Shown in pieces: positions 8,205 through 63,143 of a stretch of DNA of 64,000 nucleotides. The translations under genes were made by a program, and so were the position numbers. Source of the stretch: a virus; the IMG/VR virus record IMGVR_UViG_3300025828_004167, positions 8,805 through 72,804 of that record; one strand, given 5' to 3'. The notes under the pieces are model-generated. The model worked only from the letters and a program-made list of their open reading frames with translations. It was not told where the DNA came from and ran no database searches. Position 1 is the stretch's first letter. Every line of letters begins with the position of its first letter.

Positions 8205-9683
8205 ATGAAAGACCAATCTGACATAGTACTTTGTAACATTCCTTTTATGAGTGTTGCTTACGCACCAGCCGGCACTAGCCTTCTTAAAGCATGCCTGCAG
8301 GAACAAGGTTTTACCTGTACAGTAAAAGATTATAACATCAAATTATGGGATAGTCTATCTGATAAAAAAATCATCGATGATCTTGAAAACTATTTCACAG
8401 TCAATACCTCGCTAGACACAGACACACAGGTTTTAGTTGATCAGTACTATGAACTTATTGTGTCCGAACTGGTTAAACTAGATCCCAAGTGGATAGGATT
8501 CAGTGTATTCACATTCCAATGCCAGAGAGCTACCACAGAGATACTACAGAGGTTGAGGGGTAGATACAGAGGTAAAATAATGGTGGGTGGTGCTGGAATA
8601 AGCACCAGGGGTATAGCAAGTTCAAACGCCGATTATGCCGAAAAACTCATAAAAGACAACCTCATAGATGCCTACATCAAAGGTGATGGAGATATAGCGT
8701 TAATCGAATTACTGAAGGGCAATCTAGAATTTGCAGGTATAAACGGCAATCCATACAAAGGAGTGCCTGACTTAAACGTAATTCCGAAGCCAGACTGGAG
8801 CGATGTAATAGATTTGCCATACAGATACCATGATAGGAAAATTTTGCCTATCACTGGTAGCAGGGGTTGTGTAAGACACTGCACATTCTGTGACATACAT
8901 GAATTTTGGACAAAATTCAAATTCAGGTCAGGCCAAAATATAGCCGACGAAATGATAGAAAATTACAAAACGCACGGTATCACAGATTTCTATTTCATGG
9001 ACAGTCTCATAAACGGCAGTATGAAAGCATTCAGAGAACTTTGTCATACTTTAGTAAACTATTACAAAGAAAACAACTTGCCCGAAAAATTTTTTAGATG
9101 GGGCGGGCAGTTTATTGTGCGTTCGAAAACACAGATGCTTCCTGAGGATTTTGAAGTGGCGGCGAAAAGTGGATGTGACAACCTTTGCTGGGGTGTCGAA
9201 TCTGGCAGTGAAAAAGTTAGGAATCACATGCAGAAACAATTCTCAAACGACGACCTAGACTACTGCATGGAACAAATGAGCAGAGTAGGCATGCACTGCT
9301 ATTTTTTTATGATTATAGGGTATCCAACGGAAACAGAAAAAGATTTCCAAGATAGTCTAGATATGTTCAGCAGATATCAGAAATATGCTATAGAAGGAAC
9401 TTTGTACGGAGTAAACCTTGGTGCGTTAGCCAGCATAGACGATGGTACACCACTTTTTAAAAATTCTACCGAGCTAGGATTGACCCCTATACTTCCGGCA
9501 GAACACGCTCATGGATTAAACTGGCAAAGTAAAAAAAATCCAGTAAGTTTAGAAAAAAGAATATTGCGCAGAATATTGATACAGGAACACTGTATCAAAT
9601 TGAAATACACCGTGTGGAATGCTGACATGCATTTAAAACGTATTAAAGCAAGTTACGAAAAGATAAAAAACAAAACCTATTAA
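8205..9683 (+). CDS. Cobalamin-binding (class B-type) radical SAM enzyme
   Basis: N-terminal B12-binding-like region (IGFSVF, IMVGGAG, GDGD), SRGCVRHCTFC, GVESGS, IIGYPTET. Confidence 0.9.
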   Translation: MKDQSDIVLCNIPFMSVAYAPAGTSLLKACLQEQGFTCTVKDYNIKLWDSLSDKKIIDDLENYFTVNTSLDTDTQVLVDQYYELIVSELVKLDPKWIGFSVFTFQCQRATTEILQRLRGRYRGKIMVGGAGISTRGIASSNADYAEKLIKDNLIDAYIKGDGDIALIELLKGNLEFAGINGNPYKGVPDLNVIPKPDWSDVIDLPYRYHDRKILPITGSRGCVRHCTFCDIHEFWTKFKFRSGQNIADEMIENYKTHGITDFYFMDSLINGSMKAFRELCHTLVNYYKENNLPEKFFRWGGQFIVRSKTQMLPEDFEVAAKSGCDNLCWGVESGSEKVRNHMQKQFSNDDLDYCMEQMSRVGMHCYFFMIIGYPTETEKDFQDSLDMFSRYQKYAIEGTLYGVNLGALASIDDGTPLFKNSTELGLTPILPAEHAHGLNWQSKKNPVSLEKRILRRILIQEHCIKLKYTVWNADMHLKRIKASYEKIKNKTY

Positions 9684-34666: not shown

Positions 34667-34672
34667 TATTTA
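34667..34672 (-). promoter_or_regulatory. Late-type TAAATA element
   Basis: 6 nt upstream of ATG 34660; includes stop codon of giant gene. Confidence 0.55.
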
Positions 34673-37600
34673 TTCAGGTGCGTTTGTGGGCTCCTCTGCT
34701 ATGAATTGGGCCTGTTGTGATGTAGAACCCTGTAGTCCTTTACCATCAGCAGGATTACCATCCTTCGCAGTGTACCATACCTGTCCTCTCTTGTGTAATA
34801 TCTTGATCTGTACGGCGTCAGCGGGTGCTGTGCTCAAAGTGACAACATTGGTGCTTCCGTCCACAGAATAGTTGATAGTTGATCCATCCTCGCTAGTGAG
34901 CAACAATCGTTGGCCACCAATGAATATGTCTAACTCACTAGCGAATGATGGGGTTTGTGATAGAGTGAACGCAATCGTACTGCCATCACCTGTGAAGGTG
35001 TTGGTGTATATCGTGTCCACGTAAGGGATGGTTTGAGTACCAGACGCGTCTACCACTGCTGTGCCTGATCCATGCTCCTTGACTCCTGTTCCCAACGTAC
35101 CACGCTTGATCTGTCCAAGTTGGTTGTTGGTCTTTGTAAAGTATTCGATTCTCTCCTTGCCTATGAACACCACTCCCGGTATTATGGTGCTAACCGTGGA
35201 CCCGTCTAGACCAATCACAGTCTGTGGGTTGGCCAATACTGACCCATCCGCCACCGTTATGGTCTCGTCATCCACTGATAAAGTCTGCGTCAGTTCCGTG
35301 GTGTGTGTCTTAGAGATACGCTTGTAGAAAGTCCTGTTCATCATGTCCTTGAATATCCTGTAACCGGTTGCGCCCGTGGCAGTCTCTAATGCGAAGTACA
35401 TCACATCTAATCTGTCAGATGACACGATTGTCTTGCCTGATATTGTGATAGTGCTTCCTGAAAGTGTGTAGTCGAATCCCTGTGCTAATTGCTGACCGTT
35501 CAACCACACGAACATGTATGAAGAGTTCAGTGGTGTGTAGTACAGTTCATGTACACCGCTCGGTCTCCCCTCCAGCACTTCTCTCCTCATCTTAGTTCCA
35601 AGAGCATTATTAAAAGTAGTCACCCTCAACACGGAACCGTTCGTAAGTGTGTGACCGTCTGCGGCGATTTGAGCAGTGTCTAGAACTAGTGCTGATGAAC
35701 TGTCCCCGCCGTCGATCGTATAATGTTTATCAACCAAGGTCGTTATGGCTATCACATCTCCCTCCACTGCACCTGTACCTTGCATATGCACAGTCTGTGT
35801 CACAAGATCAACTTCATAGTTTCCCTCCTGAGCCACGGTGCCCTCTACTAATTTCCTTCCGTTGTAGTGTACCTCGATCTGATCTTTACTGGTGATCACC
35901 TTGGCGGGATCCACCGTCGAACCATCACTCAGTCCAGATGTTACACCAAATGAGTATGTGGTTCCGTCACCCACGTAATATGTGGTGTCTGGCCCTCTTA
36001 AAACTTTTCCGTCCAGTTCCACTATTGTGAGTGCGTGGAAAGGCGAGACCGATCCCGGTGGGAATGTCATCGGCAAGGTTGTTGTGGAACCGTCGTATAT
36101 TATGTCCTCAGCTCTGATCTGTGCCACGCTCCTGGATATGCCTGTTTTCTGGAAACCTGCCACTTGTATGAAATCTCCTGCCGCTGGCGGTTCAACGAAT
36201 GTTATTGTCAAAGTGTTTGAGAAACTGCTTCCAGAAGACACGGTCGATGTGAACGCCGTTGTAGGTAATCCATTCTTGGTCACGTAGATCTCAGACGCTG
36301 TTGAATCTATGTTGAAGTCTTCCCTCACAGATGTTGCGAACTCCACAGTCGATCCATCACCCGTGTACTGATCCAACACCCTGTAATTCTGTCCCGATAT
36401 AGCAAACACTTTTGTTGTGATGATGCTAGTGTTTGCTGGTGCTGACGTGAATGTGATGGTCTTGGCCGCTACATCCACTGTGTAGTCTGCCGCTGTCGAA
36501 CCATCCAACGAAACTTTTTTAGTTACTCCGTCAACTGTCACCATGACTGATGCCAATGATCCTGGATATTCCCCTATAGAATAAGTGGTTGTGCTACCAT
36601 TACCTATGTAAGTTTTCTCTGTGATGAAAGGTACGCCCGATTCCGGTGAAGTGTACACCTTGATGTCCACTGTGTCAAAGATCTGTCCTGGCACGACTTC
36701 CTCCGGTGCGTAACTGGTTGTGGGAGATAGGAACTCATCGCCATCCACGTTGATGTCTGAAGGTGCTGATCCCAGCGCCGAAGCATACAGTCCATCCTTG
36801 GTGAACAGTCCGCCTTTGATTATGGAATCAAGTGTCCTATCGTCCGTTGGTGTTAACACACCGTCGTCATCCGCTGGTATGAATTCTACTAGTGCGTTCT
36901 CGTCTGGTGTAGTGCTCAAAGTGAATGTTGTCGTGCTACCGTCTCCCGTGATCACATCTGACAGTTTGGTTCTTGTGCTGTCATCTTTTGATGTGTAAAC
37001 GTAATACACTGATCCACTGGCCGGAGCCGTCGGGAAGGTATATGAGTTAGTTGATCCATCTGCTAGGAACGGCACCGTCCTTGATAATCCGTAATTGTCC
37101 CATGGGTAGTCATACCAAGCCGACTGATCCCAGCCCTGGCTCTGTGTGAATAATAGTCCTGTGACCATGGTTCCACCGTAGTCCACTCCCGACATTACCT
37201 GTGAAAGTTCGTTGCCCGGCATTCCCGCCGCCGGTGTGTAGAATCCCTTGATCCTGTCCGCCGCCGTCAATCCTGACTCATCACCATAGTACTTGCTGAC
37301 AGCACCTATGTTGTCGTCGAAGTCGGTGGTGGATGTGAAAGGACTGACCGCCTTGTACAATTCGTTGTCGTATCTGATCTTGTCACCGTAGGCGTAACTG
37401 GTGTTGGCCGCCCAGTTGACCACTGTTGACGTGCTGGCTATCCTATCAAACTTGATTGTGGTGTTGAAATCCCTCACCAGGTCATTGCCTAGATTAGCAT
37501 AGGCCTTGGCCACGTCTGTTGGTGTTGAACCGTCCGCCTTACCACCTGTTATGGTCACCGTTGGTGTGGTACTATAACCAAATCCTATACCCGTCACAGT

Positions 37601-40600
37601 GATTGAAGTCACCGCGCCACCACTTATGGTCGCCGTTGCTGTGGCAGATGTTGAGTCATCGCCAGTGATTGTTACTGTGGGTGCCACTTCATATCCGGAT
37701 CCACCGTAAAACACAGTTATAGATTGTACGTGCTTCCTGTGGTAGTCATACCACAACTGCCATGGGTACTGCGTGAGCCTGGTGGTCTCTGTGGCTGGGT
37801 TGATGGATCTTATCTTGCCAATGCTCTCGTCATAGAACGGTGGATTGTCGAAATCGGTTATGACACCATCGTGCTGTTCCGGCGCGTTGTAGCCCAGTTT
37901 GTACTCTCTTAATTTTGTGTGGAAAGGTTTGACCTCATTGATGTAGCTCTCTATCCAGTCATCCGTTCCCGTGGTGTATGTTTTCCTCTGGTCGAACTGC
38001 CTCACCTTGTTGACCGCTGTTATGAAACTGGTCTTGAACATCCAATCAACATAGGTCTGTTCTTCCAGCACCTTCCTCAATCCCGTGAAGAACAGTGTGT
38101 TGTACTCGAATTTAAGGTCACCTATGAACAGGTCATCCCTCAATGCCGTCAATATCTTTCTCGTCTCAGTAACCGGTTCTTGGTCAAAGGTGTTGTCATC
38201 AAAGTTGTCCTCACCATCATAACCTGTGGCGTCTTGTGAATAATCATAGAGCTTAGTGCTCAATCTAATTGTGCCGTTTTCCGTGCCCACGTTTTCCCAT
38301 CCTGTGGCCGTCCTCATGAACAGTTTCCACCCACCAGTGTCTGCACTGGTCACTTTCACATGTTTTCCAACTGCTAGGTCGAGGGCGTCAAGTTCGTACT
38401 CGAAGGTCACTTGTTTGTCGATCACGGTGTTCTCGTCGTGTACCATGTCGCCGTCGGTCTTATACCAGTCAGTGTAACTCCAGTAGTTTGATGTGTTGTA
38501 TGTCTGTATCCTCGTCCTAGACCATTCCGTGCCATCCCATTGGTATATCGCCCAGTAGTTGTTTGCGGTCTCGTCTGATTTCACGAGGTAGTTCACTGTT
38601 CCTGACAGGTCTCCTGTGTTCAAGTATCCCAACTCAGCATAGGTATCCACCTGCCCGTCCCATAGACCGCTGGCGCTGGTCGGCTCTGGCTCCTTGGCGT
38701 CAAGATTTGTTAGGCTTATCTGTCCCACCAGTTGGTTCTTCTTGAGAACCGAATTAGCGTAATCGATTATCTCCTTAAGTGCTGAGAATCTATCCACGTA
38801 CCAACTCTGTCTTGGTCTGATGTTGTTTCCATATTTCTGGTTCAAAGATAGATCCACGTCCGGAACGGCATCCCCCGAGATATTCTTACCACACAGTGAA
38901 TCCCACCAACGAGACTCGATCTGGTGTCCTGGCCTGTAGTCCGGATCTCCTTCTCGTACTAGTTTCCATACCGAGTGTGCGTCTCCGTCAAATGAGTTGG
39001 TTCTGATGTCCACGTTCAACACGATATCGCTGTTGACGAGATCGTTCACGCCATTTATGATCAATTTGTTGGTGTCTGTTACCGAGTAATATTTCATGCC
39101 TGAGTTTTCCGGGTTCCTGATCAGGTTCGCCACCAATGCCGTGGTGTTCTTCCTGTTCACCACCGAGTTTGACGGGATCGATGACCTGTTCTTGACCCAA
39201 AAGTAGTACCTGTTCACAAATGTATCTACTCTAGAATCGTATTTCTGCACCACTGTGAAGTTTTCAGATGCCTCTCCTGTCACTGATGAGAATGCACCCT
39301 CCTGTGTGCCTGACAGCGTGTTCCATTCAGTTGGAGTAAACTGAGATTCCGTCCATTCGTAAATGTCTATGCTGGATCCTGGGAAAGTTTTGCCCCAGTT
39401 GTTGACCTTGTATTCCTGCGTGCCTTGTTCGTACCATAACCATTTCACTGTTGAAAGGTCCCACCATACCTCACCAATGTGGTTTTCGGCCCATGGTGTC
39501 TTGGTGTTGGCATTGTCACCGGTATTGTACACTGCCGGATCCCATGGAGACTTGATGTTGATTTCTCTATCTGCCACTCCCAGTATCCTACCTTTCATTG
39601 GATCATATAAATCGTAGTAATCCCTGATCTGCTTGGTCTTGTTATCAAAGTCAAATACCTGTCCAAGTTTGGCTATGTCTACTAATACCGTTTCTGTTGT
39701 GATGTTCTTCCATGCGTACTCGTCCTCTACCTTTAGGTCATAACAATATACTGTACCGTCATTGGTCAAGCCAGTATTGCCCTCGTCCTTTGGTGCTCCT
39801 ATGAACAGGTTGTTGTCGATCATGCACACGCCCCTACCGAAGTCGTCGTTCTCCGAAACGTTATCTGATATTATTCTGTCATCCAATACAAACTTGGTAT
39901 TGTACACCGTGGCAGTGTATGCCGCACCAGAACCTGTGTTGAGGTCAATTATATTAGTGTCTTGTAGGTCGAAAGTGGTCTCACCTGAATCAAATTTCAT
40001 TGGTCTAGGATTGGCTGATTTCTCAGCACCTATGATCAATCTGGTTCCCGATTGGTTCATTGACAACGATGAACCGAACTTGGCATCAGAAATGTCCCCA
40101 GGCTCGTTTATGGTCTGATCCAATGTGTAGGTGTTGGTCGATCCATCCCTGTTCCATTTGTATATGTAGACTGCGCCCGCGTCGGCCTGATCTGCGTTAT
40201 CCACTCCTGGTGCGCCTATGGCCAGTGTCGTACCGTCCTTGCTCATCGCAATCGACTCACCGAACGACGTATTCAAAGTTGAACCATCTTGTTCAACACC
40301 TGTCAATGTCTGTGCCAGTGCGAATGAGTTGATCGTGCTCTCGTCATTTGCCTGTGATGTCCTCACGAATATCTCGACCTTGCCGGCATTGCCTGACGCC
40401 ACGGAACTCACGACAAGTATGTCGCCGTTGTCATTGACTTCTAGTTTGTGTCCAAACCTCTGTCCCGAACCACCCGCTGGAGCATCTATAATTAAATCCT
40501 GTGTCCATGTGTCATATGTAGAACCATCAGCGCCAATGCCCCAGGTGTACATGTACACCCTACCTGTGTCGTTGTTGTGTCCTGGTGCTGTCACAAACAG

Positions 40601-43600
40601 ATATTTCTGGTTGGTGCTTCTAGTTGAACTTGTTGTTGGTTCAGCAATCTTGTGTGCCCATCCAAAATTCAGATCTTCATTTGCTGTGGATCCGTCTGTG
40701 GGTGCAGTCAATGTTGAAAGAGGACCATACTTGAATGTGTCTGGATCCCATACGTAAATCTTGATTAGCCCTTCGTTGTAATACCTAGTGCTTCCGTCAT
40801 TGGTCAGTACATTCGTGTATGGTGCACCTGCGATCACGAAGTTCTCGTCTGTGCTGATCGACAATGATTCACCCAACCTGCTGGTGTTGTCATCGTTGTC
40901 GGTCATCGTGGTGGTGGCCTGTACGGAATATTCCGTACCAGCACTGTGACTAGATCTGAATAAGAAGTGTATTTCGCCTTGTCCTTTGCCTGGTGCCGAT
41001 ATGACTGCTGTCCTTCCGTCGTTACGCGCCACTACACGGTATCCGAAATCTTGATCTGCGGTCGTTGTGTCTGGGGACAGCGTCCTAAATTCTGTGTATG
41101 GATCCTGCTTCTCATAAACACGCCACAGCCCTGAACTGTCCGCGTCAGCGAAAACCTTGTCGCCCTCTACCTTGACCTGTTGGTTCTCATCCTTGTCATT
41201 GTAAACATTGTAGTTGATCCTGTCATTAACATTGTCCATCGAACTTAACCTCACGGAAACAAACTTGTAAACGTTGCCGTAACTGTCCGCCGTTGAACCG
41301 TCCGCCAGGGTCGGTATGAAGTCAACATTGTCATCGTAGTCCACTATCACGGTCTTGTGGTCCGGCACGCTGGCCACCTGGAACACCCTGTTCAGTGTCG
41401 TGGCCTCACTGTTTGAGATCGCGAAGTAGTCGGCCTCGGTGGTGTTTGATCCTGCTGACAGTCCATGTGAACCTGTGAACTGTATCAACAGTCTCGTGGC
41501 ATTCTCTGAAGTGCTAAGTTGATCTATCTTGATTCCGGCACTGGTCAGCCTGAACACGTCCCAGTCCTTGTTCTGCTTGTTGGCGACCCATATGAGATCA
41601 TTCTTTGTGATCGAGTTGATGTCAAGGTTCAGTAGGTCTGATATGTCAAACGCCGTGTGCTGTACCTGTTCCGTTTGTGGATAACCCGCTGTCTTGTACA
41701 CCTGTGCCTTGTCCCTGTCCACCCCGGCCTTGGTATAGTCTAGGAGTGAGAAAGTGCTGGCGGCCGTATACTCCACAGGTTTCCTGTAAAGAGTTTCCTT
41801 GATTACCGCCAATGATCTTCGATATTCTTTCGTGTCTGCTGTGTTATCTAATAACTCGATGCTCTGGGGATCTGCATTAACTTGATCATCACTCAAGGTG
41901 ATCTGTATGTTTTCCACGGAGTCTGTGTTGCCGAACACACCGGTCCTGATCATCCATTCTGGGTAGAGGCTTAGATTGATGTCTGAATTTTCATACTTGG
42001 CCTTGAGCAATTTATCGATCGCGGCCTGTGTGCCCTTCTCTCTGATGTATCCTTGATAAAACTTGTACTGTGATACGTCATTCACAAACAAGTTCTCTAG
42101 GTAATCCCTCGATTGGTAACCTATCAGCCTCTGTGCCAACTGTTGTTGTGATTCGTCGAAGTTGTTGGTCTCGAGATTGTAGAAATCATTGAACTGAGAT
42201 ATCTTGTAGTCGAAGTTGGGTATCAGTTGCGGTGCTGGCTTGTCTGCTTTCAGCGTCCAATTAGTGCTGTCAAATGTACCAGTCGAGTTATGATTGATCT
42301 TCGCAACATAGAACTTGCCTTGGTACTCTACAGAATCACCTATCCTATAATTGGTGTTGTCTTCCCAGTACGTGACCTGCGCGGCGTCGAAAACAAAACC
42401 TGGTGCGTAATAGTCGCCATTCCAGTTTGCTGTTTTCCAGCCCACTAGTTTCAACCTCTGTTGTCTGAATCCCGTGAATGGTTCATATATTATGTCTGAG
42501 AACACTGTGCTGTTGTCAAATATCAACACATGTTCCTTCTGAACTGTGTTTAATGAAATATTGTATAACCCGATGTCTTGGGATTTGACACTCAAGTCAA
42601 AAGTTTTACCAACACGTTTTGTTGATATCTCACGTATGTCTATCTTCCTACCTCCAGCGTCTAACAATGAGTAGTCGCCTGCAAGGTTCCTTAACCTACC
42701 AACTATGCTGTTGTTGGTATCTAATTCAAAACCGTCCGCGGCCGGTGACACTGTAATTGCCGAACCAGGTGACCACTCTTGTGTGGTCCAGAACAGGAAT
42801 TCTCTGACTGCGTTGGTCCAGTTGAGTGTCTCCTTTATCTCATTCGAATATTTGTTGAATCGGAAACTCTGCGATTCTAACCAGTGTCCATATCCCAGTA
42901 GGAAATCCGCCACGTCCTGAATGGTGCTGAACACATAACCATAAGGTATGGTCTGCACGGTCTCTTGATAATTCTTGTATTGTGAAACAGCCACTGACCC
43001 TGTTACAGATAATGTGCCAGCGACAGTGGATTTTGCTGGATAGTTGAACTTGAAGTAAGGTTTTGTTGTTGAGTAACCCAGCACTTTGTATCCTCCCAAC
43101 AGTGTCGACCCGTCTACACCTATGTCCGTGTTTTTTTCGATCAACACGCCTGAGTAGTTAAAGCTCTCAACCGGATTGGATGTTCTAAACAGAATCTTGT
43201 AGTTCTCGTCTGGTATGAATTTAGATCCCGAGGTGGATCCCGGAGAAACAGAATCGGTCAGTACCTTGATGTTGTCCTTGTCAGTGAACCCTCCCAACTT
43301 GTAGGCCAACTGCACATTCAAGTTTTTCATCTTGTCATAATAGAATGTTTTTGGATCTAGGTTCTTGGCCACCATGTGGTTTACCACAAAAACTTGGTAC
43401 CCCGCTGTCTGATATCTCGTTGTTATTCCCGTGTTGTTGTCCGTCAAAGTTTCGAGGTGATATTTCGCGTTCGAAAGTTGTTTCCTTATTCCCGTGTCGG
43501 CGTATATCTGGTTCCCGGCAACGTTTGTGGATAACCTGGAAACATCAAAGAAGTTCGAGAAGAACTTGGCCGGTTTTGTTATGGCCAGTGTCTTCATGAC

Positions 43601-46600
43601 CGTGAAAGGGTATGCTGACGACCTTCTCCATGCCGTCTCCGCTGGTGCTTGGTCACCAAACTTCCAAGGCTGTCTCCTGCTTGGTATGTCAAAATTATCT
43701 ATCAGTCTCGCCGCGATCGGATCGAGCAAGTTACCCGAAGCGTCCACTGGTAGATAGTTGGCGATGCCTGGCTTGCCATACCTGCCGGCCGCTGTGGCAA
43801 CCGCGTTCCATAGTATGTCATTGCCAGAAGTGTAGGGTGCTGGTCCGTAGGTGTCATCCCATGTGCTTGGTTTCTCGGAGTACCCCAACATCTCCCATGG
43901 TCTAGTGTGTGGTGCGTCTGTGTCGTAGTGGTACTTGTAGATGGCCCTCCAGTGTCCTGGCAGTTTAGCACCAGTCAGTCTGCCCGTCGAGTTGGCATAG
44001 TTGTAAGTGAACGGAGATCCCTCCGAGAACGTTGTGTTATTGATGTACTGCACACTGTTACGTCCCGCCCACACATAGAAGTCAGTGCCCATGATGTCAT
44101 CTATCTCTACGAGGGTGTAATCTGTAGATTTAAACGCACTTGGTAGGACATCATGTATGTCTAACAACGTGCTGTCGTATGCTGTCTTGCAGTTGTTGTA
44201 TATCCTCTTTTCGAGTTCCAGTATCAGATCATCACGTTCATCACCGTAGGCCTTGATTATAGATCCGTCGTGTCTTCTTATTACTGTAGTGTTGGTTGTG
44301 TATGTGTCATCCGTGAATAACTCGGGTTTGAATTTTGGATACATTCCCAACTTGGTAGGCGTTGGCGGTATGTAACTTCCAGTTGTGTCGGCGTAATCCT
44401 TGATCACTATTGTGTCGCCCACTGCAAGTGCTTTTGATATGTTTATACTATCGTCGGTTGTGCTGAATGTGTAATCTGTGCCCAATACAAGTTGTGTGTC
44501 ATTAAGATAAACGTATACCGCCCTGTTACTCAGTGTTGTGACATTGTGCTGTGAATCCATAGCGTAATCTTTTTGGGAAGTGCCCTGTACCGTGTATGTC
44601 CTTGTTGAGACGTTTTGTCCCCAACCCACCATATCCTCGTAGAAAAACGGAAATGAACTGTTCTTGCCTACGTTAATACTTTCGATTATCTCATCCACAC
44701 GATCTCTAGCCACACCCTCGTATGCCGTTCCGATTGCTTTTGTCAAGAATGCGTTGTACCATTTCTCGTATTCCTGGTTGACGTAGTCAATGGCCGCGAT
44801 GGCGTTTGCTTCCTGGTCCACTAGATTGAATATCGCTGGCACCAACGGTGCCTCGTGTTGGTGTATAGTACCACCTTTCAATCTCGCTTCCGGTATGTCC
44901 CTGAGATTCGTAGCACCTGGGACCGCGCCTGTGAGATCTTGGTTCTTGTCAAATATGTCAGTGACATGTTTCAGTATCTGTCCATACGTGAACGTGCCTA
45001 TGGTCTGGTTTAAACTGTTCGTTGAGAGGTTCTCGGGTATCTCATAGATGCCCTTGTTAGTGACCTTGATGGCACTGCTGTAGCCGGCTATCCTGATTTG
45101 ATCATTGACTTTCAGTTCTTTGACGAATCTCACATACTTGTTGGTTGTGCCGTTGACCAAGGTGTAGTCCGTGGTCAGTGTCTTCCTCACACCATTCACT
45201 GACACACTTATCTCCAGATCCGTTAATGACGCGGAGTTGGTGTAGAAATCAATTGGAAAGAGTCTCTTCTCTGTGTCATCGACTATATGCGTCCTGATCA
45301 CACGCTGTTTGCTCTCGTTGGTACGCTTGATCCAAGCACTCTTGCTATTGTGCGTGGTCCTGCCTGTTGTGTAGTGTAGGTGTCCCTCGGCCAAGTTCTT
45401 GGTCACTGTCTTGCCATCCACTTGATATGTGAACGTTCCTGACGTATGATCAGATTCGAAAACCATGTCTCCCACGTTATTGATGGTGTTGTACTTGACC
45501 TTTATACCCAGCACCGTGTCTGTGGTCGCAGTGTCTGACGTGGCATAGGCAAATACTTTGGCTCCTGCGAATGACGAGTTGGGATACGCCGTGGCGTCGT
45601 CGAAACTGGTGTGGTTGTTGTCGTACATGTTGAACAACGGCTGTTGGTTCAACGCTGTCTTCTGTTGTGTAATTTTCCATGTTGTGGAAGCGGCATCATA
45701 GTAGTATGACTTACCCTTGTTGTTAACTCCACCTTTGACAAACACCGTGTCCTTGTCCAGTGCCGTGCCGTTAGTGTCCTCGTTCAATGTCAACGACAGC
45801 ACCGTGGAATCACCTGCGTCGACGAAGTTGGCCACGTATACCTTACTCCTCACCAACGGATCGGTGTCCGCCGAGAATATGATCCTCATGCCGTCTGTTA
45901 TGGCAGTCTCGTCACAGAAGTATCCAAACTGTCCTGAGACCTGACTGAACGCGTCCCTGGTGGTCGTGTCGAAGAGGTCCACTGGATTCTTGGCCACTGT
46001 TCCTGAGTTGTACAGTGACAGTCCCGAATCAAATTCAATTATGGGTCTCTTGGCCCTGTCCGTCTCATCAAGAACCGTGCTTGTTCCATTTACCTGCGAC
46101 GCTTTTTCTATCACGGATCTGTGGAACCACCTGTTGTATCTTGACCATGCGTTGTGATCTAGTGAATCCCTCTTGATTGTTATGTAATCCTTATCCACCG
46201 GAGAACCATCCGTGGCGTAGCTCTCTGGAGTGGCCAGCACCGTGGTATCGGTCAAGGTGATTGCATCTCCAACCCCCTCTACGTAGTATTCCTTGTTCCT
46301 GTACGCGGCTGGGACCTTGCTGGAACTGAACTTGATCTTCATGCCGTTTGAAAATGCCAGTGTCCTCAATTTGTAATTCTTGACTCCCACTATGTCGTCG
46401 GCCACGTTGATCTGTGATGTGGAGGCCACTGTCCTTATGTGTAGTATTCCGTACATGCCGTCATGATTACCACACTGGTAATATAAAGTGTCGGGTGCTC
46501 CGTCTGGCACCACAAATGTCACAGTGCCCTGATCAGCACCGTTGTTGGTCACACCAGATGTGTACAACACCGATGTTGACCCATCAGCGCCAATACCGTC

Positions 46601-47308
46601 CCTGCTGGGCTCGGTCATTATGTAGAATGGATGTCCCTGTGCTTCCACTGTGAACTTGTAGGTGTTGCCCCTCCAGAGCGTCATGTCTGGATTCCTCTCG
46701 TTCTCGAGATGTCGGAAAGTGTATGCCCTTCCGGAAGATCCGTCATCGGGTAGTGCTTCCACCTTGTATTCCGCTACCGCACCTGTGCCGACTGAATCAA
46801 TTTCTATGGCGCTCGGTCCATTGGGTAGCCAGTAGTATTCTCTGTAGTTGACCAACTTGTCGTAGTCTATGGCCGGGTTCCAACTGTACACGGTCTCCTT
46901 GTTGAGCCTGTCATGGTTGTCGACCTTGCCTCCTAGGTACTGGATCTGATTGATGTAGTCGTCATACGTTCCTGTGAACTTGACCTGGTCCTCTGGATTC
47001 ACCGAAGTTGTGTCTCTGTCCGTGTATGTCACGGCTGGTTCCAATTGATATGCGAACCTATCCCTGCTGGTGGCGCCTATGTATCTGTCTGTGATCTGCC
47101 TGGTGTAAGCGTCCTGCCTTCCTACGAACCCGTCTAATCTCTCCAGTTGACCTTTCTGTACTAGTGGATCTAAAGTGCTGGCCAGGAAACGCTGGTTGGT
47201 GTCGGTCCTGTAAAACGCTGGTAGGTGCTGTACCGTCCTACGATACTCGTTCGTGCCCTGCTTGACGACTTCGTTGTTGGTCAGTGCGTTAATTGGATCG
47301 TCGGCCAT
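34670..47308 (-). CDS. Giant (4212 aa) baseplate wedge/gp7-like structural protein with cupredoxin-like domain, FG-GAP propeller and GDGST-type repeats
   Basis: Follows gp6-like gene; [10 protein letters not shown], multiple FG...GAP repeats, GxGY.xxPTVTITG repeats. Confidence 0.8.
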
Positions 47309-61122: not shown

Positions 61123-61131
61123 TTTTTCCTA

Positions 61132-61213: not shown

Positions 61214-61408
61214 ATGTCAAATGAAACACATGAACAGATCATGACAGAGATACAGACTTACTCAGAAGAGAATGGTAAGTTCGTAGACAAGGGTGTAAAA
61301 GCATCGGCGACAAGGGCCAGAAAGGCACTTGCCAACCTTGCTAAATTGATCAAAGCAAGAAGAAAAGAGATTCAAGAAGTCAAGAACGCCGCAAAAGAGT
61401 CAGCGTAA
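61214..61408 (+). CDS. Histone H1-like Hc1-family small protein
   Basis: KF..KG.KASATRARKAL..L.KL.K..RKE. Confidence 0.75.
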   Translation: MSNETHEQIMTEIQTYSEENGKFVDKGVKASATRARKALANLAKLIKARRKEIQEVKNAAKESA

Positions 61409-61436: not shown

Positions 61437-61468
61437 GACCCCCGGCTAGAGATAGTTGGGGGTTTTTT
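61437..61468 (+). terminator. Rho-independent terminator
   Basis: ACCCCCGGCTA-GAGA-TAGTTGGGGGT stem with G-U pairs, then T-tract; between convergent genes. Confidence 0.8.
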
Positions 61469-61874
61469 ACGACTTGAGGATTCCTTTACCGTGAACACGC
61501 ACACGGATGTGTCCGTTGTAGTAGTCATTTGATTCTAGAACTTTGCGTGCGAACTGTTCTCGTGCTTCTATATAAGAAAGTTCTGCTTTGGAATAACAGT
61601 AGAATAGTATCTCTCTAATGAATTTTTCCTTACCAAGTTTTAATACATCTGCTGAAAGTTCGTCACTACTTCCGTAGTAGTCCTGCCAATCCGAGTCCAC
61701 CTTGTACCTACGCTTGTTCTTCCTGCCTTTAAGCGGTGGTCTCGATCTCTTGAATCTGGCCAACTTCTTGCCGATGTACATCCTGCCGTTGGTGGTGTTG
61801 GTTATCTGATACACGAATCCCACCACGTCCTCAGGTAGGCTGGTAATTTCATTTCCTTGGTACTGCCAATTCAT
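61467..61874 (-). CDS. GIY-YIG endonuclease
   Basis: GFVYQITN..NGRMYIGKK, YYGSS, F.REIL, YYN; ATG 61874 lies 5 nt after TAAATA. Confidence 0.88.
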   Translation of the reverse strand: MNWQYQGNEITSLPEDVVGFVYQITNTTNGRMYIGKKLARFKRSRPPLKGRKNKRRYKVDSDWQDYYGSSDELSADVLKLGKEKFIREILFYCYSKAELSYIEAREQFARKVLESNDYYNGHIRVRVHGKGILKS

Positions 61875-61897
61875 TGTGGTATTTAAAGCCAAAAATA

Positions 61898-61926
61898 TTG
61901 ACCATCAAAGAAAACTCGTATAAACA
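61898..61926 (+). promoter_or_regulatory. Candidate promoter for the non-coding region
   Basis: TTGACC at 61898 with TATAAA at 15 nt or TAAACA at 17 nt; imperfect. Confidence 0.4.
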
Positions 61927-61929
61927 AGT

Positions 61930-62352
61930 GCGATAGGCAAACTACAACTTCTCAAAAAAATCTCATAGGCAAACATAGCATCGCAACCAGTGAGCAAGGA
62001 AATGCGGCTAACAAGCGACAGGTGAATCCTTTGATGCAAACGGCAAAAAATGATGGGGCTCTTAGAAAAAGATAATCCCCAGGTCCGCCAGGAACTATCA
62101 TACAAGGGTTTGGTGGGCTCGCGTTGTAATGAATGAGCTAACGGGTACAGCACAACCGCCCGACTACGGTAGCGATGTATGGTGACTGCGAACTCACCAC
62201 AGGGTTCAAGTCGGTTCGGCTAGAAATAGCCGAATTGTGACTGCTCATCTACCACAGGCGACGCATAAATGCGTCATTTAGTTTTACAACTGCGTAAGTT
62301 AAAAAAAGAAACGAGCGTAGCGAAGTTTCAGATGGCGTAAGCCGTCTCTGAC
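61930..62352 (+). ncRNA. Candidate large structured RNA, family unassigned (alternatively a replication-origin element)
   Basis: Within the only ~500-nt gap in a gene-dense window; 8 or more hairpins, GNRA loops and G-U pairs on + strand. Confidence 0.6.
62182..62258 (+). repeat. Two copies of GTGACTGC-N6-ACCACAGG
   Basis: 62182-62203 and 62237-62258, flanking a GAAA hairpin. Confidence 0.85.
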
Positions 62353-62372
62353 AGGTCATTAAGTACACTACA

Positions 62373-63143
62373 ATGGAACTACTCTGGGATCACACACTGG
62401 GCAAACAGGAACACACCGACGTGGTGCTGTGCCGACCCATGGCCATAGTGGACTCCGATGAGGAACACGAGGCCCTGGATCGCGGATGGTTGGCGCTGGA
62501 CCACCCCGTGATGAATCGGGAGGTGTGGTACCAGTCACGTAGCACCAGGATAAACCTGGACCTGTACAGACCCCGATACAAGCAACACCAATGGGACGGC
62601 CGGGACATCGGCATCAAAATCATCGACGCGAGCGAGATGGTGAGGTTGTTGGGACTGCCCACCATATACGACAACTACATGAAGAGGAAGGGCTTCTCGC
62701 AGGACTACACGCCGTTCGCGCACTACCATGACAGGGACCAGTTCATGCTGTTCTACGTGGGCACCGCGGACAACATCATAGGATTCACCAAGCAGAAGCG
62801 CTACAAGTACGAGATGGACCACTATAGCACCATCGACACCTACGACAGCCGGGACCTGGCGGGACTGGAATCGGTCATACACGCCAACACCGTGGCCATA
62901 TCAGACATCACCTTGGACATGGAGATATCGTGGGCCAGCGACAACTACGTCAGTTACTTCTACATGGGGTCGGGCTACGAGCGGAGCAGTATATACAAGT
63001 CCAACTTCCGGGGTTTCGAATGGTGGACGGGGACGAAATGGAGCACGGACAAGAAGCAGTATCGCAGGCTGTGTGAGCGTGACTCTAGGATCGACTCTTT
63101 TTCCGATCTCGGAAACCTTTCACTGATTCCAGATAAGTCTTAG
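62373..63143 (+). CDS. ATE1/Bpt-like aminoacyl-tRNA--protein transferase homolog
   Basis: ALDRGW, RSTRI, C-terminal YFYMG.GY....YK..F...E.W resemble the ATE/Bpt family signature. Confidence 0.62.
   Translation: MELLWDHTLGKQEHTDVVLCRPMAIVDSDEEHEALDRGWLALDHPVMNREVWYQSRSTRINLDLYRPRYKQHQWDGRDIGIKIIDASEMVRLLGLPTIYDNYMKRKGFSQDYTPFAHYHDRDQFMLFYVGTADNIIGFTKQKRYKYEMDHYSTIDTYDSRDLAGLESVIHANTVAISDITLDMEISWASDNYVSYFYMGSGYERSSIYKSNFRGFEWWTGTKWSTDKKQYRRLCERDSRIDSFSDLGNLSLIPDKS

Follow-up and report, generated by a model that had tools for sequence, protein, structure and literature searches.

What does the one long stretch without open reading frames (ORFs) in this viral DNA encode? The DNA analysed here, referred to as the window, is the final 64 kb (positions 8,805 to 72,804) of the 72.8-kb IMG/VR contig IMGVR_UViG_3300025828_004167, and because this contig is rated only 21% complete the source phage must have a genome of several hundred kb. 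An earlier note made from the sequence alone had marked about 420 nucleotides (nt) of the window, 61930-62352, as a structured non-coding element between GIY-YIG and ATE1-like genes, and had suggested that it is a novel phage RNA or an origin or primer RNA. We find that the element is a conserved, structured non-coding RNA with a double-pseudoknot core, encoded on the + strand. It carries two short segments that match each other within a phage and differ among phages, and its relatives include RNAs that bear the Rfam motif Polynucleobacter-1 (RF01718). We tentatively regard it as a scaffold that acts in trans.

A conserved non-coding module

No gap in the window between ORFs of at least 120 amino acids (aa) is longer than the interval 61893-62372 (480 nt), whose + strand contains no ORF of 30 aa or more, in agreement with the earlier description of the only long ORF-free stretch. 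The minus-strand ORFs within the gap (82, 49, 36 and 39 aa) are not conserved. Across 42 homologues the longest open frame ranges from 53 to 129 codons, with shifting frame and strand, and insertions or deletions of one and two bases are present inside conserved blocks. The element has no conserved reading frame.

Related loci were fetched via two flanking proteins, and blastn detected the element in 68 of these 110 loci at 72-97% nt identity. The variable insertions of relatives sit exactly near 61870 and 62370, and the element is therefore a discrete module, 61877-62365 (+). This module is often better conserved than the adjacent proteins; in one relative (L007) it retains 94% nt identity, against 81% aa identity in the neighbouring protein.

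Further loci were collected by scanning IMG/VR, metagenomes and contigs of metagenome-assembled genomes (MAGs) with a pattern made from a 19-mer of the core; of the 125 loci that the metagenome and genome scans supplied, nhmmer confirmed 122. The degenerate pattern also gives chance matches in IMG/VR, which were removed by eye or by nhmmer (L124, L129, L135, L145, L155, L160, L176, L200, L201, L203, L209, L213 and L228; the removal of L124 and L160 is uncertain). With duplicates and chance matches set aside, at least 222 distinct loci carry the RNA. It is abundant in marine, estuarine and freshwater metagenomes, with at least about 118 stretches in each of two collection scans. A scan of the genome_contigs collection gave seven matches, three of which were chance occurrences in GC-rich chromosomes. 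The four true matches (L350, L354, L355 and L356; GTDB) are contigs of 2-10 kb that hold the phage RNA with phage neighbours and were binned in MAGs of Neomarinimicrobiota, Pacearchaeota, Pseudobdellovibrionaceae and Betaproteobacteria; their spread over four unrelated phyla is probably due to misbinning of phage DNA. Among cultured phages, blastn found no match for the window element or for the RNAs of two sister lineages. A covariance model of the core (177 positions) indicates a single copy per contig, scoring 166.6 bits at the element and 12.8 bits at the second-best match in the window.

Covariation defines a double-pseudoknot core

Folding of the single sequence barely exceeds that of shuffled sequences (z = -1.91 for the + strand and -0.57 for the - strand), a modest effect, so the real evidence for structure is comparative. 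We built a model of 76 pairs in 15 helices by hand and tested it on a MAFFT alignment of 63 distinct sequences. In this alignment 95.4% of cells pair, compared with 84.3% in column shuffles, and none of 500 shuffles reached the observed value. The earlier note had proposed a search for covariation in related loci; 48 pairs change on both sides, where 29.5 +/- 2.3 are expected. The model reaches a covariation score of 0.372; shuffles give 0.159, and sliding the 3′ partners by one to three columns gives 0.048-0.090. Of these measures, relatedness among the sequences inflates the slid control and the number of doubly changed pairs the least.

At many positions the pair exchanges with G-U (for example UG 44 / UA 16, UA 38 / UG 25 and GU 33 / AU 24), which would be a C-A mismatch on the other strand, and a small hairpin loop in the core swaps between UNCG and GNRA forms. 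The functional strand is therefore the + strand. The argument for a single-stranded RNA function that had been made from the window alone is thus borne out by the base-pair and tetraloop exchanges, by covariation in 63-70 sequences, by two pseudoknots and by the lack of a conserved ORF.

The first pseudoknot joins the apical loop of a long hairpin, H3 (CAUAC, 62099-62103), to GUAUG at 62177-62181. All five pairs show compensatory changes and 98.4% of cells are paired; one of these pairs, for example, is UA in 31 and CG in 28 of the 63 sequences. Other lineages form the same pseudoknot with other letters. By eye, UUUGAA/UUCAAA, CUUGAA/UUCAAG, CAACUA/UAGUUG, CAAUUA/UAAUUG, CUACAUAU/AUAUGUAG, CUACAUCU/AGAUGUAG and AUCUAUC/GAUAGAU were found, covering lineages B, C and D and the L210 type. 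The second pseudoknot joins GUUGU (62123-62127) to ACAAC (62152-62156) in the 13-nt loop of the core hairpin. It is nearly unvarying within the window's lineage, and its support comes from an alignment of 70 sequences across lineages, in which it is 92.5% paired, with a change from U-A to C-G in 7 sequences and from G-C to A-U in 16. A closing helix GCGUU/GACGC had been considered in its place; it never covaries and was dropped.

The 70-sequence alignment also reveals invariant segments, AAUGA, GCUCU, GCG and GGGUAC.GC...ACCGCCC, the last of which is made of columns that also served as the search pattern. Columns A15, G18, A19, G24 and C25 around the hairpin H2 are invariant as well. For the region 62174-62266, alternative folds (GGTGA/TCACC, AUGAGC/GCUCAU, and AGUC with the second GACU) and a long-range GGUGA/UCAUC pairing were without convincing covariation.

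Architecture of the RNA

Of the nine hairpins listed in the earlier note, six show compensatory changes, two (GGTGA/TCACC and GCTC/GAGC) find no place in the supported fold and one is optional. Upstream of the RNA lies the candidate promoter that the note had also proposed, a promoter-like site at 61898-61924 (+) with TTGACC (61898-61903), a spacer of 15 nt and TATAAA (61919-61924), which is kept in an alignment of 42 copies. The RNA opens with two single-stranded UAGGCAAAC boxes (61934-61942 and 61966-61974, +), exact repeats that occur nowhere else on the + strand of the window. Every member of the family, including the probable homologue in Agrobacterium phage Atu_ph07 described below, begins with two or three AGGC(A/U)A boxes, and RF01718 starts likewise.

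The H1 domain follows at 61978-62037 (+), with an outer helix GCAUC/GAUGC (61978-82/62033-37), a middle helix AAGGA/UCCUU (61996-62000/62027-31), a variable apical hairpin and the conserved internal-loop strands GGAAAUGC and AGGUGAAUCC. Its three helices are 98.0%, 96.2% and 83.8% paired, and 2, 3 and 3 of their pairs change on both sides. The strand AAAAUGA leads into H2 (62047-62081, +), in which UGGGG pairs with CCCCA (62054-58/62077-81) around an inner CUU-AGAAA-AAG (62061-63/62069-71); this GGGG/CCCC hairpin with its inner CUU/AAG stem is one of the six with compensatory changes, and GCUCU in the H2 region is invariant throughout the family. H3 is a long hairpin at 62083-62118 (+; 62083-92/62109-18 and 62095-96/62105-06) whose apical loop provides the 5′ strand of pseudoknot 1. 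It corresponds to the GTCCGCCA/TGGTGGGC pairing seen earlier, with 12 pairs, of which 11 change on both sides, and 96.2% pairing.

Beyond the 5′ strand of pseudoknot 2 (62123-62127, +), which covaries across lineages, a three-way junction occupies 62137-62173 (+). It is formed by GCU/AGC (62137-39/62171-73), the core hairpin and the small hairpin AC-UACG-GU (62163-64/62169-70), whose loop is the one that alternates between UNCG and GNRA forms. The core hairpin, CGGG-UACAGCACAACCG-CCCG at 62142-62162 (+), is near-invariant family-wide; its stem (62142-45/62159-62) covaries as CGGG/CCCG and so has four base pairs rather than the five of the CGGGT/GCCCG pairing first suggested. The 3′ strand of pseudoknot 1 (62177-62181, +) stands immediately downstream, followed by the two address units described in the next section.

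The units flank the hairpin GGUUCGGCUA-GAAA-UAGCCGAAUU (62213-62236, +; 62213-22/62227-36), which had been recognised in the DNA as CGGTTCGGCTA-GAAA-TAGCCGAATTG and shows 99.4% pairing over 10 pairs, with 5 pairs doubly changed. Two of the listed pairings find no support: GGTGA/TCACC pairs in 78.8% of cells, with two pairs unpaired in 25 and 35 of the 63 sequences, and the bases of GCTC/GAGC belong to other helices, outside the supported model. After unit 2 comes a terminator-like hairpin GACGC-AUAAAU-GCGUC (62260-62275, +) with a T-rich tail, found by a terminator scan. This hairpin, given before as GACGCA-TAAA-TGCGTC, is 88.0% paired where present, but its 3′ half is gapped in 15 of the 63 sequences (13-15 gaps per pair) and it must be regarded as optional.

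The 3′ part consists of an A-rich linker and the hairpin GAAAC-GAGCGUAGCGAA-GUUUC (62300-62329, +; stem 62308-12/62325-29), all five outer pairs of which change on both sides. Its GAGCGUA(A)GCGAA motif is conserved family-wide, and the 3′ GAGCGTAGCGA loop to which the earlier note had drawn attention is a real motif of the whole family. The terminal hairpin AGAUGGC-GUAA-GCCGUCU (62330-62347, +; 62330-36/62341-47) is 92.4% paired, with compensatory changes on both sides in 3 pairs, and is followed by a run of U in many homologues. It is likely to be the 3′ end or the terminator.

Two address segments that match each other

Each unit consists of UGACU, 8 nt and a segment that we call the address. 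In the window unit 1 reads UGACU-GCGAACUC-ACCACAGG (62183-62203, +; UGACU at 62183-62187, address at 62196-62203) and unit 2 reads UGACU-GCUCAUCU-ACCACAGG (62238-62258, +; UGACU at 62238-62242, address at 62251-62258). A weak hairpin, GAACUC/GGGUUC, may enclose unit 1 in its loop.

Three address positions vary within the window's lineage, and at all three the units agree in 42 of 42 sequences (AA 39 / GG 3, CC 33 / GG 9 and CC 38 / UU 4). Mutual information over all columns of the RNA shows that the address covaries to a comparable degree only with the other unit. We parsed the units in 169 distinct sequences, of which 4 were chance matches and 165 true members, and in every true member the two units share at least 6 identical nt. 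The variable address is 6-9 nt long and its letters differ among phages. The forms counted are ACCACA (85), GCCACA (18), AGCACA (17), AGUACA (8), ACUACA (1), AGAUGAG (7), AGAUGAU (4, and 3 more scored on a neighbouring repeat), ACAUGAU-type (7), AACGUGAUG (4), GUGUCAAGU (3), GGUCAA(GU) (5) and GGUAAAG(U) (3); GGUCAAGU, alongside GUGUCAAGU, and GGUAAAGU also occur in true members.

The flanks of unit 1 and unit 2 differ from each other and remain different, and for this reason the identity of the addresses looks like the result of selection for identity, not of gene conversion. In every address a triplet with a following A can be recognised (CAC-A, UAC-A, AUG-A, GUG-A, GUC-A or GUA-A). We treat this reading as a lead only, since the two bases that lead into the triplet likewise change in step between the units.

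The wider family and Polynucleobacter-1

The RNA occurs in the window's lineage (A), in a ‘mid’ group and in at least four further lineages (B, C, D and others), in all of which it lies downstream of gp47/gp46 on the same strand. The parts keep a shared order: the AGGC(A/U)A boxes, a lineage-specific 5′ domain, AAAUGA and H2 with the invariant GCUCU, H3, the pseudoknot-2 strand, the core hairpin, the pseudoknot-1 strand, two address units around a hairpin, a hairpin of the GAGCGUA(A)GCGAA type and the terminal hairpin.

Searches for known families were negative in the window. At gathering thresholds Rfam gave no family in the whole window, and at E values up to 10 the region 61700-62500 gave only a chance match to a small nucleolar RNA (E 3.7). 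The Rfam models of RNase P RNA, group I introns, GOLLD, ROOL, HEARO, self-cleaving ribozymes and T-boxes had no match in the window, and ARAGORN reported no gene for transfer RNA (tRNA) or transfer-messenger RNA (tmRNA) in the 64 kb, in line with the absence of tRNA, tmRNA, RNase P and intron signatures stated before. A group I intron was also rejected on its context: the + strand has no interrupted coding sequence or RNA gene, the GIY-YIG gene is on the opposite strand and the downstream ORF is intact.

The RNAs of lineage C gave a different result. RF01718 matches all 7 lineage C loci on the same strand at 88-95 bits (gathering score 37), each match ending about 110 nt upstream of the invariant core, and L210, of another lineage, matches at 38.3 bits. 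Since motif and core occur together in 7 of 7 loci, the catalogued motif is, by these sequence matches, part of a larger RNA: RF01718 is the 5′ domain of one branch of a much larger phage RNA. The model comprises 141 nt and lacks both pseudoknots, the core hairpin, the two units and the 3′ hairpins. The window's own 5′ domain has no match to RF01718 even at E up to 10, but the two resemble each other in the AGGCUA-type box at the start, the position downstream of gp47/gp46 and the aquatic distribution. The novelty claimed for the window RNA is accordingly partial: it has no Rfam match, yet through the core it is homologous to RNAs that bear RF01718. A table entry of the 2010 catalogue lists Polynucleobacter-1 as a possible cis-regulatory RNA of Burkholderiales and of fresh water and estuaries (Weinberg et al. 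2010, PMC2864571). In the portions of the literature available to us on Polynucleobacter-1, Atu_ph07, structured or noncoding RNAs of jumbo phages and GOLLD/ROOL, to which the supplements of the 2010 catalogue do not belong, the RNA is not described.

A single cultured phage yielded a match to the core model. In Atu_ph07 (NC_042013.1) the model scores 24.7 bits at 490132-490282 (-), with a roughly calibrated E of about 2e-4 per genome. The match falls within 489783-490380 (-; L363:1784-2381), a gap of roughly 600 nt without annotation at the record's end. By eye this gap contains AGGC boxes, AAAUGA, H2 with GCUCU, a GGGUACAGGACAACCGCC core, a long hairpin between two repeated units (AUGAAU..AAAGAUUA), and two 3′ hairpins with AAGCGUAAGCG-type loops. 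The gap thus probably holds a distant homologue of the window RNA; we say probably because the middle parts are differently arranged. The homologue lies about 17 kb from gp46, between IF3 (gp001; PF00707/PF05198) upstream and S21 (gp713; PF01165) downstream, and ClpX, ClpS and a ThrRS fragment are close by. The record labels gp713 ‘hypothetical’, and it matches Ribosomal_S21 with E 1.8e-12. Neither S21 nor IF3 was found in the window's contig and one relative, contigs that are only 21-27% complete.

In Pseudomonas phage PA5oct and Sinorhizobium phage Phosso the core model found nothing near gp46 or elsewhere in the genome, although divergence beyond the reach of the model is possible. Phosso has a gene-free, hairpin-rich gap of 1 kb (L230:7410-8425; PV764938.1 229759-230772) between genes for a Holliday-junction resolvase and RNase HI, a few kb downstream of gp46. 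This gap could hold an analogous RNA, though the covariance model has no match there.

Genomic setting and expression signals

The local gene order of the window begins with a 326-aa ORF at the position held by the late sigma factor in PA5oct, Atu_ph07 and Phosso. A gp47-like phosphoesterase and a gp46-like SMC/Rad50 protein follow, the latter with 48% identity to its counterpart in PA5oct and 43-47% identity to those of Atu_ph07 and Phosso. Next come a 64-aa ORF resembling the histone H1-like Hc1 (61214-61408, +; PF07432, E 3.7e-12) and the SegE-type GIY-YIG protein, which has 135 aa, consists of the nuclease domain only (61467-61874, -; PF19835, 3.3e-35) and is divergent from the RNA. A T4-late-like TAAATAC motif belongs to the GIY-YIG gene and forms a conserved block beside the RNA (61878-61890, -). 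The downstream neighbour of the RNA is an ATE/GNAT-like ORF of 256 aa (62373-63143, +). A Pfam search with this ORF itself gave no match, and its neighbours in the protein atlas carry a PF04377 ATE_C or GNAT aminoacyl-tRNA transferase domain. It is preceded by TAAGTAC (62360-62366, +), a late-promoter-like variant of the pattern TAAATAC-N6-13-ATG.

TAAATAC-like motifs stand 6-13 nt before the ATG of the ORFs that start at 2468, 8171, 8205, 18946, 34660, 50790, 61874 and 62373, so the 62373 gene shares its motif with at least 7 other genes of the window. We take these motifs to be akin to T4 late promoters, and their closeness to the ATG implies very short leaders.

Some features of the surroundings deserve mention in their own right. 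Compared with loci L002-L111, the region has four sharp insertion hot spots, near 61124, 61470, 61870 and 62370, which fall between gp46, the Hc1-like ORF, the GIY-YIG gene, the RNA and the ATE-like gene, and relatives hold 0.7-3 kb of extra DNA there. The phage-encoded Hc1-like ORF is kept beside gp46 in most relatives, and contigs from RNA libraries cover it too. Elsewhere the window contains a giant ORF of 4212 aa (34670-47308, -), followed by ORFs of 1160, 817 and 742 aa.

Six metatranscriptome runs contain part of the stretch. All four runs that were examined, from four studies, have contigs on the element, for example 62109-62317, 62103-62267 and 62049-62268. In one run the word depth of the contigs is 95-136 in the bins of the element and 0-29 in the flanks, with no cover at 62356-62628; such contig depth cannot rank regions and the hole proves nothing, so no inference is drawn on expression level or ends. 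In lineage B loci a similar sequence, TT(G/A)AC(C/T)-N16-17-ATAAAC, precedes the sister-lineage RNAs, and in lineages B-D the RNA starts directly after a same-strand GIY-YIG ORF.

Possible functions of the RNA

Our tentative proposal, which we hold with less than even confidence, is that the RNA is an independent scaffold that acts in trans, with a core that binds a conserved component and addresses that bind a repeated or dimeric partner. An RNA of about 420 nt would have a gene of its own, about 61928-62350 (+), transcribed from the promoter-like site at 61898-61924 and ending at the terminal hairpin 62330-62347. The folded RNA would act in trans, its near-invariant core binding a conserved cellular or phage component, which may be the translation or tRNA apparatus, judged from the gene neighbours. 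Each of the two identical single-stranded addresses of 6-9 nt would bind one copy of a partner sequence that is present twice, or one half of a dimeric partner; an address would then be free to vary between phages and bound to match between copies.

Several observations weigh against this proposal. No complement of the address exists inside the RNA, and in the 1.5-15 kb of DNA around 151 loci a complement occurs at no consistent place, extra copies being scattered there as chance predicts. The helices around unit 1 are weak (98.4% for a single pair, then 85.6% and 78.8% paired, with 1 of 10 pairs doubly changed), and the single-strandedness of the addresses is therefore predicted only. The link to translation rests on the neighbours in one cultured genome and on one gene family, and in lineages B-D the RNA has no detectable ATE-like neighbour. 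The promoter-like site, present and conserved as it is, fails a strict sigma-70 scan, which needs a spacer of 16-18 nt and T at position 6, and in lineages B-D co-transcription with the GIY-YIG ORF or processing is possible. Assembled contigs from RNA libraries demonstrate presence; neither a separate transcript nor its ends and strand can be read from them, and DNA may have been carried over. Finally, a double-pseudoknot core with invariant unpaired bases suits a ribozyme or a ligand sensor equally.

A bolder proposal, which we consider rather unlikely, is that the RNA represents a new class of large double-pseudoknot machine, either a ribozyme or the RNA core of a ribonucleoprotein, with two reprogrammable guides that seize a repeated or dimeric nucleic-acid target. 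Such targets might be two tRNAs, meant for the neighbouring aminoacyl-tRNA transferase or translation factors, or the two strands of a DNA site, meant for the adjacent GIY-YIG nuclease.

The main rivals of the scaffold are a ribozyme and a cis-regulatory leader. A new self-processing or trans-acting ribozyme would have the double pseudoknot as its catalytic core and the identical sequences as substrate or junction sites. The double pseudoknot is backed by covariation, UACAGC..ACCG, AAUGA and GCUCU are extremely conserved while gp46 drops to about 50% aa identity, and the size and ornate fold are like those of known large ribozymes and of large RNAs that are unexplained. Against this, the Rfam ribozyme families give no match even with the E limit raised to 10, and an internal guide complementary to the two sites was not found. 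The contig ends in the RNA libraries are uninformative here, and we regard a catalytic role as doubtful.

Among known systems the large, ornate, phage-associated RNAs GOLLD and ROOL come close (cryo-electron microscopy preprint 10.1101/2024.12.08.627333). Like the window RNA, they are several hundred nt long and phage-carried, with many helices and pseudoknots. The window RNA differs in that it matches neither Rfam model and has no tRNA genes nearby. Concerted identical repeats are not known from GOLLD or ROOL.

A cis-acting leader, similar to a riboswitch or T-box, would control the ATE-like gene, with ACGC at 62261-62264 entering an alternative pairing that toggles the hairpin 62260-62275. 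Several features fit such a role. An ATE/GNAT-like gene adjoins the RNA in the window's and ‘mid’ lineages, in either orientation, and in most loci of the window's lineage it begins about 25 nt after the RNA on the same strand. The element contains a terminator-like hairpin with a T-rich tail, and the table entry of the 2010 catalogue marks Polynucleobacter-1 as a possible cis-regulator (PMC2864571). That suggestion is at odds with the convergent genes downstream. The next downstream ORF of at least 60 aa is convergent in every lineage C locus (7 of 7), as it is in those D and other-type loci that reach past the RNA; counted over the 21 loci of the C, D and other types, the downstream ORF is convergent in 14, 3 have a small same-strand ORF first and 4 contigs are too short. 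The convergent ORFs include a homologue of a T4 baseplate protein. In L115 and L227, moreover, the ATE-like gene is upstream of the RNA and divergent. It follows from both arrangements that the RNA is no family-wide 5′ leader.

Further points speak against a leader. Insertions of 0.7-1.4 kb part the RNA from the ATE-like gene in several loci, the gene owns its TAAGTAC motif, and the 3′ half of the internal hairpin is the one gapped in 15 of 63 sequences. The proposed switch-partner helix does not covary, and its 5′ strand is better explained by pseudoknot 2. A leader is therefore unlikely on these points.

The comparison with T-boxes and other tRNA-binding RNAs is of some interest beyond the leader. 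In a T-box the specifier codon is followed by a 3′ purine, and the triplet followed by A in each address resembles this arrangement. The setting is also T-box-like, with a relative of aminoacyl-tRNA transferases nearby and IF3 and S21 beside the probable homologue in Atu_ph07. In contrast to a T-box, the window RNA has no T-box model match and carries two copies of the address, not one, and the two bases 5′ of the triplet co-vary, which pairing of codon and anticodon does not explain. A conserved element for pairing with the 3′ end of a tRNA was not found in the window RNA. The likeness is one of resemblance, not of established membership. The core at 62143-62162 (GUACA..ACCGCCCG) also bears what we presume to be a likeness to the universally conserved segment of 16S ribosomal RNA near positions 1392-1406, in the decoding region, with a few extra bases in the middle.

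A replication origin or primer RNA, as the earlier note had suggested, would be a folded transcript that hybridises with DNA and primes synthesis, in the manner of plasmid primer RNAs or the origin transcripts of T4, with the AGGCAAAC boxes as putative iterons. It would account for the fixed place beside the recombination and replication genes gp47/gp46 in all lineages, for the repeated boxes next to an A-rich stretch and for the A-rich purine tract ahead of the 3′ hairpins, and the 1-kb gap of Phosso adjoins an RNase HI gene. The cumulative GC-skew minimum, however, lies at about 56-58 kb, 4-6 kb from the element, at a switch of gene orientation (the skew follows the gene strand, and the contig is 21% of the genome). 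The constraint is on RNA pairs, including G-U, and on tetraloop swaps, which a DNA site does not need, rather than on DNA repeats; the strand of the element is fixed relative to gp46; and the probable Atu_ph07 homologue, 17 kb from gp46, stands among translation genes. The origin suggestion is unsupported, and we regard it as very unlikely.

The adjacent GIY-YIG nuclease domain might instead use the RNA as a guide or partner, with the two addresses as guides. Among the 166 loci whose upstream DNA is long enough, the nuclease-only SegE-type ORF (135-150 aa) abuts the RNA in 120 and is no more than 3 kb away in 152. It diverges from the RNA in the window's lineage; lineages B, C and others have the two in tandem on one strand. 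This recalls omega-RNAs and HEARO, in which a large structured RNA with short variable segments stands beside a small nuclease ORF. The present case differs in several ways: the GIY-YIG domain is common in the absence of the RNA, the variable segments occur inside the RNA and in two copies, transposon ends were not seen, and in Atu_ph07 the RNA is apparently without the nuclease. The 458 cultured phage records that have the protein family carry it once per genome (43-60% identity among the matches listed), and no comparable non-coding gap lies beside the gene in Melnitz and P-SSM2, the two inspected. PF19835 was not found in the 490 kb of Atu_ph07, which has the probable homologue of the RNA, and 13 of the 166 loci have no such gene nearby. 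The whole region is syntenic, so that the adjacency may be inherited and not functional, and a guide of this nuclease is highly improbable. Many cyanophage and rhizobiophage records, as well as PHROG 447, name the SegE-type protein ‘NAD synthetase’; this looks like a propagated misannotation, as Pfam identifies a GIY-YIG nuclease domain.

A template for a polymerase that switches between identical repeats, as in telomerase-like or rolling-circle reverse transcription, can practically be dismissed: repeats of arbitrary yet matching sequence on either side of some 55 nt would fit template jumping, but that segment has stop codons on both strands (by eye) and encodes no repeat protein, and the reverse transcriptase domain RVT_1 (PF00078) is absent from the complete Atu_ph07 genome (490 kb) and three partial contigs in a search whose controls were positive in 3 of 14 genomes.

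Implications

Large, highly conserved structured RNAs are rare, and those whose function has been solved have repeatedly proved to be ribozymes, riboswitches, guide RNAs or self-assembling particles. By the sequence comparisons made here Polynucleobacter-1 is a fragment of a phage RNA several-fold larger and is probably not a bacterial cis-regulator. The two always-identical, fast-changing segments are an unusual evolutionary signature and offer a direct experimental handle. Across an entire clade of uncultured aquatic jumbo phages the RNA is a core feature with conserved synteny, and the probable homologue in Atu_ph07, if true, would make the question of its role testable at the bench.

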